From the NCBI RefSeq assembly GCF_048571275.1, contig NZ_CP182357.1:1142125-1206124 (forward strand): DNA of 64,000 nt, written 5' to 3'. How positions within the stretch are numbered: position 1 is the stretch's first letter; every line of letters starts with the position of its first letter. Shown here piece after piece: positions 40,540 through 48,297 of the stretch. Source of the stretch: Candidatus Marinarcus sp. (GTDB lineage: Bacteria; Campylobacterota; Campylobacteria; Campylobacterales; Arcobacteraceae). A model generated the notes under the pieces. That model saw only the letters and a program-made list of their open reading frames with translations, was not told the origin of the DNA and searched no databases. The translations under genes and the position numbers were made by a program.

Positions 40540-41688
40540 TTATAATTTTAAACCTTCTATATATACATACTCTTGATCCACAAACTCTTCTTTATGTAAT
40601 GTTGGGATTAATATCTCATCAATATATTTGTCTCCTGTTGGCGAAGGCTCTTGTTGAGACACTTTATCAGAATCAATAGGTCTATGTGAGTCATTTGTTT
40701 TAATAGCATATAATAGTTCATCATAGCCAGGTTTCCAAATTTGTAATTCTGAAAAAATATTTTTAATTGTGTTAAATATATTTATACCCGAGTAATCCAT
40801 ATCCCCCCAAAAGTAAACATTAATATTCATTTCGTAATTATTATAAATCCAATCTTTAAATACCTGTCTGCCTTTCTTATCTAATTGACAATTTTCTTCA
40901 AAAAAAAGTTTACTTCCATCTGTTTTTCTAAGCCTCTTTGCAGCAGCTTTAAATCCTGATGAATAAATTATAAGATAATCGTTAAATATGGAATTTTTGC
41001 TATCAATAATTTCAGTATAAGTGTCTAGGTTTTCAATGAATAAGATATTTTTAAAGTGTTCTCTAAATGATTTAATATGGAGAACAATAGGTGATGGCTT
41101 AAGGCAACAGTGCTCTATAATTTCAGTTTTTTTATCAAGAATCTTTGACAATCCCCAAAAGTATTTAGCACTAATATGTCGTACTGACATATTACAATTA
41201 TCAGAAGTTAGTAAATTTATGAATTTTTGTAAAACCTCTTCTTCTGATTTAGATGGAACTTTTATTCTATTACGGATAATCAACTCTTTTAACTCTGCAG
41301 TACAATCTACTTCATTTACAAAGTCTAGCCATGTATCAAGTACAAGAGGTCTATTGTAAAATTGGCGTAATTCTCGTTCATATGCATAGTTAAAAATAAG
41401 TTTTGTAGATTCTTTTTCAGAAAATCGTTTAAAACTTTCTTTCTTTCGCTCCTCAATAGAAAAAATCTCTTTTTCTACTAACTTTAATAGTGCATCTTCA
41501 AGTTTTTTATCATCATTGAAATTCTTTGGACTATATAATGTTGGTAAATATTGATTATTGATAGGAACCTTTATTTTGTGACTTCTTAAATTAGAAGATT
41601 GTTGATCTAGTTTATCTAAAATCAAATGAAATATTTTTTTTATATCTTTAATCTGCAATTCATACTCAATTGATATTAAGCAATTCAT
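40540..41688 (-). CDS. jetD: Wadjet JetD TOPRIM nuclease (DUF3322+DUF2220-like)
   Basis: SAKYFWGLSKILD; FIENLDTY; YSSGFK; FWGDMDYSGI; last gene of the SMC operon; probable ATG 41688. Confidence 0.85.
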   Translation of the reverse strand: MNCLISIEYELQIKDIKKIFHLILDKLDQQSSNLRSHKIKVPINNQYLPTLYSPKNFNDDKKLEDALLKLVEKEIFSIEERKKESFKRFSEKESTKLIFNYAYERELRQFYNRPLVLDTWLDFVNEVDCTAELKELIIRNRIKVPSKSEEEVLQKFINLLTSDNCNMSVRHISAKYFWGLSKILDKKTEIIEHCCLKPSPIVLHIKSFREHFKNILFIENLDTYTEIIDSKNSIFNDYLIIYSSGFKAAAKRLRKTDGSKLFFEENCQLDKKGRQVFKDWIYNNYEMNINVYFWGDMDYSGINIFNTIKNIFSELQIWKPGYDELLYAIKTNDSHRPIDSDKVSQQEPSPTGDKYIDEILIPTLHKEEFVDQEYVYIEGLKL

Positions 41689-44600
41689 ATTCTTTTCTCC
41701 CTTCAATCTCGGCCAAATTAAATAATGAGGGTAATTCAGATTGAATTAATCTATTTATAGCTTCTGCATTGTTATTAGTATATTTACTCCATGTTTCATA
41801 ATTCAATTCTCCATTATGCTTATTTTTTGGAGGCAATTTTGCTATATTATAGTTTGAACAATCCATTTTTAATAATTCATTTGCACCTTTAGTAGGTAAT
41901 GCCATAATAACTTGAAATCCTAGTGTTTGATTGAGATAGTTGATTATCTCTTTTGCTCTGTCATCGTTTGTTTTTACAAAGCTTTCATCAATTAAAATTG
42001 TTTCAAGAGTTGATTTCTTAGCAATCATTGGATTAAGTGCAGAATGAAGATTAATTGAACGAATTATATAATAGGATGTTTCTCCTTGTCCTCCTGAGTT
42101 TTTTCCACTTTTACTTAAACTAACTTCTCTCATTCCATCTTTTTGGATAATATCATACTTAGCATAATTTCTATAATCTGAAATTCTTAGAAGTTCATTT
42201 TTATTTTTTCCAATAGTAAGAAATTTTTCCAGAAGCCTTTCTTTTGTTAAAGCTAGTTCTTTTCCATTAGCAATCGCAAAAAGATCTTTATTCTCTGCAA
42301 TTGCTTGAAATAAATTTCTATACTCTTCATATTCAGGATCCGCATCTTTTGTAACAAGAATAAATTGGTCATCTTCAAATTTATGTCTAGATAACATTGT
42401 AGAGAACTGGTCTATTTCTTGTCTTGATGTTTTTATATTACGATACATAGTTACGCAAAAACCATCAATGAATACTTCTTTAACTTTTTTTTCTCCATCT
42501 TCAATTTCTTTTTTAAATTTCATTTGGAGGGTATTTTCTAGCCTAGTAAATTCATTTTTTATTTTTATATTTTCAGCAAACAAACTTACAAAACCATCAA
42601 AAGAAAAGTTATACACAAGTATCTCAGGGTTTTCAATATAGTATATTTCTTTTTGCTCAAAAATCTTACTTTTGTTATAATTGTTAATTAATTTATTCCA
42701 ATCGTCTAATATGATATCTTTTACATGTTTAGGTTCTTGTGTAATATTTTCTGTAGAGACAATTTTTTCAATATCATAAGATGAATGCATTAAATTAGTT
42801 ATCTTGATTAGATTCTCTTTGTTAGAATTTAACGTTTCCGTAACTCTTTTTAAATCATTTTCAATATTTTCAAGTTCCTGATTTCTTCCTTTCTTAAGTA
42901 TATTTAGGTTTTTTAAATCCACTTTATTATCAATAATACTCTCTTCAATACCTTTGATTTGACTTTCTAGTTCCAGAATACTGTTATTTAATTCTTTGAA
43001 ATCAACAGTATTAAGAGATTGTATAATTTTTATATTGTTTTTATATCCAGTGTAGTTTTCTGCAAAGTTATTTATTAAGTTAGAAGCATTGATGTGAATA
43101 TTAGGAAAGTCACTTAAAAGTATTTTATTAATAATTCTACTCATAGGTAATTTTTCTCTTACTGCTATCAATCGGTTTTTTTCTATTAATAAATCATTTT
43201 TAAAGCCATCAAGCATTGACTGTAAAGCACTTTCTCCAAAGAAAAGTTCTCTTGCTTTGCAATAAAACATTAGCCCACCATTTACTGCCTTGTGGTCTTT
43301 TGTTATCCCTCTTTCGGCACTTTTTAATTGCAATTCATTCTCATAGCAAAGTACATTTCTATAGTTTTTTATAAGGTATGCTTTTGTAATTTCATTATCA
43401 ATAATAAGTTTATTAACTATAGAGTTTTCTTTAATTGAAGACTTGCCTATAATTGTTACATCATTAAGCATTTTCTCTGATTGTATTATCTTTAAATAAT
43501 TTAACTTGTTTGCTTTGACGATATTAATTGCTACAACTTCATGTCCTACTGGAACTATAATTGCAAATCTATTGTTCTTTAAAAAACCTTCTATTGATTC
43601 TGCCCAGTTTTTTTCATCATCTTTGAAATCTACATGTTGATATACCATTGATACTGTGATAGTTGGTAATGATGATTGAAGTATCTCAAATTGTTCCATT
43701 ACCTCTGTAGGACAAAAGATTTTATGATTCTCAATTTTTTGAATCTTACTTGTTAATTCAGATATATGCTTGATTATATCTTTCTCTTTGGTTTCAAGCT
43801 CTTTAATATTGTGTGATGAACTATTTTGTTTTTTTCTATAATCTTCACTCTGAATAAAAGATTTAAACAAGGGTTCAATAGTATTTAATTGCAGTAATGG
43901 GTTAAGAAAGGACTTCTCAAAGCCTTCACTATTAATTGTATCAGAAACTGAATATTGATAAGGGAGTAATTCATTGATGTTCATTTTTGAAAAGGTTTCC
44001 AAGTGATTCGATATCTCTTGTAACTCAAGGGAGTCATTTATTTCAAAGTCTTCATCTAATAGTGTTTTTATACTACTCCAAAAGTTTGTGGTCATCTTAT
44101 GTGATAATTGTCTTAATTCTTTTTTTATCTCACCAATAGTTTCAACTTGAAGTTTAATTTCGTCTTCTATTAATTCAATTTTCTGATATGATTCATTATG
44201 ATCTCTTTTTGAAAGAAGTGGATTGAGTTGCTTTGTTACTTTTTCTTTTTTTTTAATATCTGATTCGATATTTTTTTCTAACTGTTCAATTTTTTTATCA
44301 TTTTGCTCAAACTTCTTAAGTAGAGATTCTTTTAAATCATTTTTGATTTCCAAATGGTGTAACGCGAAAAGATAATGATCAGTAGCATTGCTTTCCCAAA
44401 GTGAAAGAATATTATCTATATTGGTGGAAAACTGTTTTAACTCTTTGTTTCCATCTTCAATAATCTTAGATTCTTCTTTTAATTCCTTTAGTGTAATAAG
44501 TGCATCAGATAGTCTAGAAACTTCTTCGTCCATTTTTTTCTCTTCTAAAAACTCTACTCTAATAAAAGTATTTAAATCACTTACCGGTCTGGCATATATA

Positions 44601-48079: not shown

Positions 48080-48087
48080 TATAAAAT

Positions 48088-48297
48088 CTACCTTTTCAAT
48101 GCTTTTATAACTATGTCTTTTTCTTTATTGTTAATATATAACTCCAACCAACTCACTATCCAATGTGGAACTTTCCTACCTTGTCTCTCTGTAGCCCAAC
48201 CTTTTAACGTATTGGGATTAACCTTTGTATATTTTATAAATTCTTCTTTAGACAAACTTGCTTCTTTTAGTTTTTCTAAAAATAAATCAAAGTTCAT
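48088..48297 (-). CDS. Small XRE-like HTH regulator
   Basis: 69 aa; LSKEEFIKYTKVNPNTLKGW..VPHWIVSWLELY; ends 8 nt before the parB ATG. Confidence 0.7.
   Translation of the reverse strand: MNFDLFLEKLKEASLSKEEFIKYTKVNPNTLKGWATERQGRKVPHWIVSWLELYINNKEKDIVIKALKR

Follow-up and report, generated by a model that had tools for sequence, protein, structure and literature searches.

A predicted ParA-less ParB clamp and its candidate parS site at the head of a type I Wadjet operon

Comparison with related loci shows that the Wadjet operon present in a 64,000-nucleotide stretch of Candidatus Marinarcus sp. DNA (contig NZ_CP182357.1, positions 1,142,125 to 1,206,124; hereafter the window) has gained a fifth, leading gene, which encodes a putative ParA-less ParB clamp dependent on cytidine triphosphate (CTP) and appears to be translationally coupled to jetA. 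The same comparison shows that this parB gene and a 16-bp palindrome embedded in it, the candidate parS site, have been conserved together across about ten loci. Described Wadjet systems consist of four genes and contain no sequence-specific DNA-binding component, whereas the clade reported here adds ParB and a predicted cis parS in front of jetA. What seems to be new is the association of a ParB and its own cis site with the head of a known JetABCD Wadjet type. In the full-text literature, subscription-only papers being outside its scope, we found chromosomal ParB loading of Smc or ParB/parS reporters only, and no ParB in a Wadjet operon; to that extent, a preliminary description made from the letters of the window alone was right to propose the arrangement as a candidate undescribed system.

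Results

The operon consists of six tightly packed open reading frames (ORFs) on the minus strand, from 48297 to 40540, in the order 69-aa ORF, parB, jetA, jetB, jetC and jetD (Table 1), which is where the preliminary description had placed them. The four jet genes are called as a type I Wadjet by PADLOC (JetA1, JetB1, JetC1 and JetD1; E-values lie between 5e-59 and 3e-171), in agreement with their first naming, and their Pfam families (JetA, DUF4194, AAA_29 with SbcC_Walker_B, and JetD_C) succeed each other in the order JetA-B-C-D within one operon. Gene order, families and overlapping frames are shared with type I Wadjet as previously described (E. coli GF4-3 JET, P. aeruginosa, Bacillus; MksBEFG/EptABCD). 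The Walker A motif of JetC (GQTGVGKST) is intact and its SbcC_Walker_B family is matched, and the Toprim motifs ENLD and GDMDYSG of JetD are intact as well. Wadjet extrudes DNA loops and then cleaves small circular DNA (PMC10889018), and this operon is expected to do the same, with a predicted loop extrusion followed by cutting of small circles. The true start of jetC is probably the ATG at 45247, which would create an 11-nt overlap with jetB; the PADLOC JetC1 alignment begins at residue 11 of the ORF and the related locus L001 displays an identical jetB/jetC overlap. Similarly, jetD probably starts at the ATG at 41688 and would overlap jetC by 23 nt, as it also does in L001. At the parB-jetA junction (...GACAAC TAG ATG TAT GCC...), the TAG of parB abuts the ATG of jetA, as had been read before. 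The public sequencing runs that hold this sequence (three DNA runs, one sediment metagenome) include no RNA run.

The arrangement is not unique to this genome. A search with ParB returned nine clusters at 59-89% identity, followed by a sharp drop to ~35%, which is the level of ordinary chromosomal ParB/Noc proteins. In every member of this clade with a readable contig, jetA stands immediately downstream of parB and is followed by jetB, jetC and jetD. Across ten sequence-distinct loci, the parB stop codon abuts or overlaps the jetA start codon (TAGATG, TAAATG, TAATG, TGATG, or a 1-nt gap) and a purine-rich ribosome-binding site for jetA lies inside the 3' end of parB. The integration of ParB into the Wadjet operon, initially proposed from a single locus, is therefore recurrent. 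Identity within the clade ranges from 65 to 88% for ParB, from 52 to 85% for JetA, from 41 to 78% for JetC and from 44 to 70% for JetD, and ParB is the best-conserved protein of the operon. No jet gene was found beside 73 distant ParBs of the AGQRR type (named after the motif described below), so the link is confined to this clade in the data searched. In PLSDB, relatives of JetC occur only on plasmids of at least 290 kb (megaplasmids), none of which carries this ParB. A scan of species genomes for the jetA-neighbour pattern gave 4 loci, all ParB-less or cut off, which served as outgroups only, and the word-indexed JetA search, whose candidate list was crowded with AT-rich words, gave 8 proteins; the survey of the parB-jetA arrangement reaches this clade only.

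The systems that carry ParB cluster as a single clade in each of the neighbour-joining trees built from JetA, JetB and JetC. Their next relatives (Arcobacter, Poseidonibacter and two metagenomic contigs; JetA identity of 36-45%) are devoid of ParB and have housekeeping or unrelated genes 15-105 nt upstream of jetA. Inside the clade, L092/L093 are sister to the window plus L001 (JetA 77% identical) and their jetABCD genes are intact. In L092, no parB was found within 10 kb and no remnant of it upstream of jetA, where McrBC ends at a distance of 73 nt. Since this nested sister does without ParB, the protein is an accessory and not a core subunit, and its distribution points to a single gain at the base of the clade, followed by at least one loss. 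In L092 (658-16749), the ParB-less Wadjet is part of a defence island and comes right after a type IIG-like ResIII/Eco57I enzyme, DUF2779 and McrBC. With an identity of 50%, versus 77% for JetA, the JetD of this locus is unusually divergent, suggesting that the nuclease gene may have been exchanged.

The surroundings of the module vary among loci. In L006, it is cargo of a Tn7-like element, directly after tniQ, and in L001 it lies beside such an element. A divergent gene for a transposase of the insertion sequence (IS) family IS1595 adjoins the module in L003, L015, L095, L098 and L101. In L094 (1062-12699), parB-jetABCD directly follows Gabija gajA-gajB; only 53 nt separate the latter (gajA OLD-Toprim and gajB UvrD-like) from parB, and the two systems may be co-transcribed. 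Between the window and L001, the hosts' MurC proteins are 69% identical, compared with 88% for ParB and 85% for JetA, which argues that the module has moved horizontally. A few oddities were met among the relatives. In L099 (3249-6829), jetC is split into two ORFs of 298 and 782 aa, and a near-identical ParB cluster, P0009, has a 33-aa internal deletion in its helix-turn-helix (HTH) domain. Either may be an assembly error, and decay in one lineage is possible. L011 (JALOAF010000058.1), a 3.5-kb contig whose JetA shares 52% identity with that of the window, is filed under a Candidatus Absconditabacterales metagenome-assembled genome (MAG); as all other relatives come from Arcobacteraceae-like DNA, it looks like a binning error.

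By sequence and predicted fold, the product of parB belongs with Spo0J/ParB, Noc and KorB. Family support comes from Pfam (ParB_N, PF02195, 2e-17; HTH_ParB, 9e-6) and from NCBIfam, in which parB_part scores 103 bits and thus well above its cutoff of 58. The protein is laid out as an N-terminal CTP-binding domain, an HTH, a disordered linker (residues 208-223) and a C-terminal beta-beta-alpha domain. Its AlphaFold2 (AF2) model, with a predicted local distance difference test (pLDDT) score of 78.5, contains helices over residues 110-204 and the beta-beta-alpha unit over residues 226-265; this last domain fits the consensus GKIEI...L pattern, yet it has no Pfam match at E <= 0.01. The top Foldseek matches of the model are Noc, ParB and KorB, with E = 1e-13 to Noc and ParB, while the KorB structures (8QA8 and 8QA9, the latter being KorB-KorA) match more weakly than Noc or chromosomal ParB. 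The AGQRR motif occurs within IAGQRRLLAY. On the basis of Pfam, alignments and the AF2 model, the full ParB announced at the outset, with AGQRR, HTH and C-terminal domain, is present in all its parts. An identity as Noc was rejected, given that TIGR04285, whose cutoff is 315 bits, scores only 112 and that the protein has no N-terminal extension, hence no membrane-targeting helix.

Residues were assigned by aligning ParB with the sequences of PDB entries for Spo0J, M. xanthus ParB, Noc and Caulobacter ParB, together with the clade alignment. Q19-P20-R21, G59, R61, R62, E101, N102 and R105 are invariant across the 46-sequence alignment. The glutamate of the GERR motif corresponds to Gln60 in this ParB, as judged by alignment to E93 of M. 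xanthus ParB, and the glutamine is invariant within the clade. In M. xanthus, E93 has been proposed as the general base for CTP hydrolysis; the E93A variant still binds CTP, has largely lost hydrolysis and dissociates slowly from DNA, with a spread that widens from 33 to 125 kb (bioRxiv 10.1101/2021.05.05.442810).

Both the PDB alignments and the 46-sequence alignment indicate that the protein starts ~25-30 residues into chromosomal ParBs, and the usual N-terminal ParA-stimulating tail is consequently missing. This apparent truncation fits the absence of ParA: as first reported, no ParA-like ORF occurs in the element of the window, and none was found in 18 related Wadjet-linked loci (0/18), compared with 11/44 distant AGQRR-type ParB loci with enough upstream sequence. 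Lacking both a ParA and the ParA-stimulating peptide, parB is not part of a ParABS partition system.

The key feature of the locus, which the preliminary description missed, is a conserved palindrome inside parB, TGGTAACCGGTTACCA, which we conclude to be the predicted parS of this ParB. The palindrome scan located it at nt +611 of parB, with identical position and sequence in five lineages, and it is unique within the 64 kb of the window even with 3 mismatches permitted. Its codons encode N-G-N-R-L-P, at the linker that is disordered in the AF2 model. Across the five lineages, the codon is retained in just 24% of the 144 columns with an identical degenerate amino acid, while the palindrome keeps the same codon at six successive positions. 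No other run of this kind in parB exceeds two codons, and the palindrome is the sole 16-nt window of the gene that is invariant. Its CGG is the one CGG among the 95 Arg codons of the operon. The palindrome is thus under selection as DNA and not for the protein. In L097/L098, it has become CTGTAACCGGTTACAG and is still perfect, through two compensatory pair changes at the cost of a G to C and a P to Q substitution, and three lineages have a single central change (CCAG). The arginine of the HTH recognition helix (SRENVSK) is changed only in L097 (STESVSK) and L006 (SVTLVSK), the two lineages in which the outer positions of the site differ.

A related palindrome surrounds a distant homologue. L072, a high-GC plasmid-like contig, encodes a ParB that is 22-26% identical to those of the clade and shares the IAGQRRLLA motif as well as the beta-beta-alpha C-terminus; its genes are ordered ParA, four sites, ParB and one site, the site being a symmetric palindrome variant (TGGCAACCGGTTGCCA versus TGGTAACCGGTTACCA). 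A close relative of this contig, L082, has a matching parA-site-parB layout. These uncharacterised metagenomic parABS systems differ from the Wadjet-linked module in having ParA, an N-terminal extension of ParB and five intergenic sites, and in having no jet genes. In this plasmid-like family (L072 4801-8988 and L082 6687-10742), the four copies of CTGGCAACCGGTTGCCAG between ParA and the GQRR ParB are spaced by 55 bp, and the conserved 520-580-aa protein after the fifth copy may be a replication initiator. Our parS reading of TGGTAACCGGTTACCA rests on its conservation, on the compensatory changes and on this array around a distant homologue.

Searches among mobile DNA gave the following picture. 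The 16-mer had seven single matches in viral contigs, a number at chance level, and none of them was close to a ParB or Jet gene; a search of viral contigs for the ParB clade itself found no member. No plasmid with the exact 16-bp site was found, and both the PLSDB relatives and the viral-contig matches were uninformative in this respect. Around the closest annotated plasmid ParB (A. butzleri p63), the palindromes proved to be AT-rich chance repeats only.

Could ParB and its site be a functionless leftover of a plasmid or of an IS1595-borne cassette, or the palindrome something else, such as an RNA hairpin? The dispensability of ParB in L092, the decay of the site in L006, the internal deletion of P0009 and the IS1595 transposase gene or remnant upstream in most loci would all agree with this. 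We nevertheless give it hardly any credence, as ParB is the best conserved protein while JetC fell to 41%, the stop-start coupling is kept in 10/10 loci, and the site shows compensatory evolution together with the rare-codon constraint. The RNA hairpin was itself rejected, being weak (-7.3 kcal/mol, z = -1.56).

Upstream of parB, the loci are far less uniform. The 69-aa ORF has no Pfam or NCBIfam family; its AF2 model contains five helices (pLDDT 72), with the HTH of the HigA antitoxin as best fold match at a non-significant E = 1.7. The ORF postulated earlier is real, and its nature as an HTH protein is plausible. In six other loci, its place is taken by an unrelated 74-75-aa DUF6471 protein, with which homology was sought and rejected, and in L006 and L094 nothing stands there; a small helical or HTH-like ORF thus directly precedes parB in 8/10 loci. 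Of the 'five/six-gene system' initially suggested, the five-gene part holds: the conserved module consists of five genes, and the 69-aa ORF, shared only with L001 and replaced or absent elsewhere, is outside it. The AT-rich intergenic region further upstream should hold the operon promoter. A consensus promoter scan yielded matches no commoner than in shuffled sequence, which makes it uninformative in DNA of 27% GC, and no promoter was therefore assigned. An intact divergent IS1595-family transposase gene is located upstream in L003 (8588-9604), L101 (3765-4778), L015 (529-1542) and L095 (636-1637), and a remnant of it persists in the window (48399-48506, plus strand; aa 14-50, 49% identity) and in L001 as well. 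The ancestral cassette was probably composed of the IS1595 transposase gene, a small ORF and parB-jetABCD. In the DUF6471-type loci (L003, L095, L097, L098, L099 and L101), a near-consensus promoter (TTGACA-17-TATACT or TATAGT) is found ~150 nt upstream of the DUF6471 ORF. The same loci carry short inverted repeats just upstream, e.g. GATGAAATA...TATTTCATC, which could be operators for the small protein or an IS end.

The transposon thought to carry the operon proved to be real. TnsA, TnsB, TnsC/TniB and TniQ were identified by Pfam, which makes the element Tn7-like, and its termini consist of TGT... repeats starting TGTCATATACAA, with the internal repeated AAACTTAACT (TnsB-type repeats), flanked by a 5-bp TGACC target duplication (31793-31797 and 50267-50271). 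It has a lower GC content (25-29%) than its flanks (32-36%). The insertion separates the N-terminal part of dprA (50223-50543) from its C-terminal part (31290-31721), and the host has in consequence probably lost natural transformation. Besides the operon, the cargo comprises Endonuclease I (36909-37652), a sensor kinase and response-regulator pair (37652-39401: a response-regulator-like protein, whose receiver domain is below the Pfam cutoff, and a 361-aa HATPase_c kinase), DUF2188 and a 550-aa protein without family. The latter (48560-50212, minus strand) separates the operon from the Tn7 end; Pfam, NCBIfam and PADLOC give no match for it, and none of the fetched loci encodes a relative. The element resembles the AbaR-type Tn7-like islands inserted in comM of Acinetobacter. 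Three of its features act against incoming DNA: the disruption of dprA, Endonuclease I and Wadjet. The host belongs to the Arcobacteraceae; its MurC shares 81% identity with the counterpart in an Arcobacteraceae MAG and 74% with the one in Malaciobacter.

In such a setting, a ParA-deaf chromosomal ParB and a decoy centromere might poison the partition of incoming low-copy plasmids whose parS is of this family, and thereby constitute a second anti-plasmid activity. The missing N-terminal tail of chromosomal ParBs, the lack of ParA, the match of the site with a plasmid parS family, and the Endonuclease I cargo and disrupted dprA, likewise directed against incoming DNA, speak for such a trap. It is nonetheless very improbable, since its specificity would be very narrow, no plasmid with the exact site was found and the invariant translational coupling to jetA would be left unexplained.

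Table 1. Features of the Wadjet operon and of its carrier element (positions of the window; '.' marks features without strand)
Feature	Position	Strand	Description
parB	47279..48079	-	266 aa; predicted ParA-less ParB/Noc-type CTP clamp; Pfam, NCBIfam, PDB alignments, AF2, Foldseek
candidate parS	47453..47468	.	perfect 16-bp palindrome TGGTAACCGGTTACCA; codons N204-P209, start of ParB linker; 175 nt upstream of jetA start
jetA	45881..47278	-	kleisin, 465 aa; Pfam JetA 4e-23, PADLOC JetA1 5e-59; ribosome-binding site AAAGAGGA inside parB 3' end
jetB	45237..45881	-	KITE/MukE-like, DUF4194, 214 aa; Pfam and PADLOC
jetC	41666..45247 (ORF 41666-45277)	-	SMC/MukB-like ATPase; PADLOC JetC1 3e-171
jetD	40540..41688 (ORF 40540-41706)	-	Toprim nuclease; PADLOC JetD1 3e-79, Pfam JetD_C
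69-aa helical ORF	48088..48297	-	8 nt upstream of parB; possible small HTH regulator; lineage-specific (window and L001 only)
AT-rich intergenic region	48298..48559	-	should hold operon promoter; contains IS1595-family transposase remnant
Tn7-like transposon	31798..50266	.	18.5 kb; tnsA, tnsB, tnsC/tniB, tniQ at 31906-36538; inserted inside dprA

Discussion

The reading that we weakly prefer, and hold only tentatively, is that ParB silences the Wadjet operon in cis in the manner of KorB. Loading, the marking of self DNA and KorB/KorA-like repression were the three possible roles put forward in the preliminary description. ParB dimers would load at parS and close around DNA upon CTP binding. 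As the general-base glutamate of GERR is replaced by glutamine, the clamps would open slowly and, being long-lived, may spread over the operon-bearing DNA. Such autorepression could hold the nuclease, a potential danger, in check on entry of the mobile cassette into a new host. The variable small helical protein encoded upstream may serve as a KorA-like partner, and incoming DNA with the same site could titrate ParB and relieve the repression. A regulatory role is favoured by parB being the first gene of the operon with its site in cis, by the ParB-less relatives having no dedicated regulator and by the small helical or HTH-like ORF that precedes parB in most loci. There are also precedents for ParA-less ParB homologues acting as regulators. 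VirB of Shigella, a ParB CTPase that derives from a plasmid and has no ParA, was re-used to regulate transcription and has a parS-like site; it counters H-NS silencing, which is not known in this phylum. The fold match to KorB-KorA (8QA9) provides another precedent: in RK2, this ParB-family CTP clamp sits on palindromic operators and silences distant promoters with the help of a small HTH partner.

In other respects KorB differs: it works with a ParA (IncC) and with many operators, and the locus described here has one intragenic site, none near the promoter, and a small upstream ORF that is not conserved, being of two unrelated kinds or absent. Several observations weigh against silencing in cis. 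The candidate parS lies ~0.65-0.95 kb downstream of the promoter region, inside a coding sequence. Between lineages, ParB and parS remained constant while the promoter region and the small ORF upstream were exchanged. In L006, the outer positions of the palindrome have been lost although ParB is intact. As regards clamp lifetime, the plasmid-type homologue of L072 also has a glutamine (GQRR), and the Glu-to-Gln change need not abolish turnover. Finally, the coupling to jetA and a conservation of ParB above that of the Jet proteins would be explained at least equally well by ParB and JetABC being direct partners.

A rival explanation is self-exemption, in which ParB clamps spreading from the embedded parS mark the jet-bearing DNA, and JetABC is released from it or kept from activating JetD. 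A role of this kind can be likened to that of MatP-matS, in which a site-specific protein displaces a MukBEF-type complex in cis; MatP has no sequence relationship to this ParB. A single site could protect a whole small replicon, because cleavage needs the extrusion of the entire circle. The location of the site within parB, which makes it inseparable from the operon, its presence once per locus and the constancy of parS and parB while promoters were swapped are all in line with this proposal. So are the ties of the clade with mobile elements (Tn7-like, IS1595) and its movement between hosts with MurC only 69% identical. Wadjet cuts circles only up to ~50-100 kb (PMC10889018), and the loss of ParB in the chromosomal defence island of L092 is what self-exemption predicts, since a chromosome is safe by its size; the restriction of JetC relatives in PLSDB to plasmids of at least 290 kb points in the same direction. 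Against it, the two loci whose replicon size is known lie on chromosomes (contigs of 2.58 Mb and 1.54 Mb); a self-mark would be superfluous there, and ParB is still under purifying selection. No member of the clade was found on a small plasmid, and Tn7 moves by cut-and-paste and not as a circle. Moreover, Wadjet stalled at a large obstacle cuts there (PMC12647877), so a passive roadblock is unlikely to protect DNA and an active unloading or inhibition must be assumed. On balance, self-exemption, which would allow the cassette to ride on plasmids, circles of integrative and conjugative elements or transposons, is unlikely.

Alternatively, CTP-locked ParB could recruit JetABC, as ParB does with Smc-ScpAB, to the cis site or to incoming plasmids partitioned through the same parS family, and thereby make restriction faster or extend it to a wider range of sizes. 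Loading of Smc by ParB at parS is well established (PMC7083940, PMC12647877). The ParB-parS/Smc-ScpAB systems of B. subtilis and C. glutamicum likewise associate a CTP-dependent ParB clamp and a 16-bp palindrome with a complex of the structural maintenance of chromosomes (SMC) family, a set of components that recurs here at the level of the genes. In B. subtilis, a parS is even located inside the parB (spo0J) gene. In these systems, however, unlinked genes and a ParA serve chromosome segregation with an SMC that is not MukBEF-like, and their ParB differs from ours, in which the catalytic glutamate is a glutamine and the ParA-interacting tail is missing. A loader would account for the translational coupling of parB to the kleisin gene in 10/10 loci, palindromes of this family make up a real plasmid centromere in L072 and L082, and the Glu to Gln change should favour the closed, CTP-bound state. 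On the other hand, canonical JetABCD loads without any loader, and the nested sister L092 and all outgroups are without ParB. How loading at a chromosomal cis site would serve defence is not obvious, and a pure targeting in trans needs no conserved copy of the site in the operon. We know of no MukBEF-type complex that depends on ParB. In C. glutamicum, ParB loads SMC and not MksBEFG (PMC7083940). For these reasons, loading or targeting by ParB looks quite improbable.

Taking the last two possibilities together, it is rather doubtful, though less so than either of them, that parS and ParB form a portable 'self' label or a dedicated loading/unloading site, through which ParB-CTP clamps on the operon-bearing DNA would make JetABC release that DNA or show it the starting point. 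If this were true, a sequence-specific layer of self/non-self recognition would be added on top of the sensing of size and topology by Wadjet, and this would be the first ParB that works with a MukBEF-type complex.

To conclude, Wadjet has been thought to sense plasmids by their size and circular shape only and to load on any DNA, while ParB-parS is the classic sequence-specific loader of a housekeeping SMC complex; the two are joined here in one selected operon. The competing models, including the silencing in cis that we weakly prefer, are directly testable by synonymous destruction of the site, by the revertible Glu-to-Gln change and with the natural ParB-less sister as control. The module therefore offers an experimental system to learn whether a CTP clamp can steer, silence in cis or transcriptionally gate a MukBEF-like immune motor. 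It also bears on how a mobile element may safely carry a plasmid-killing machine.

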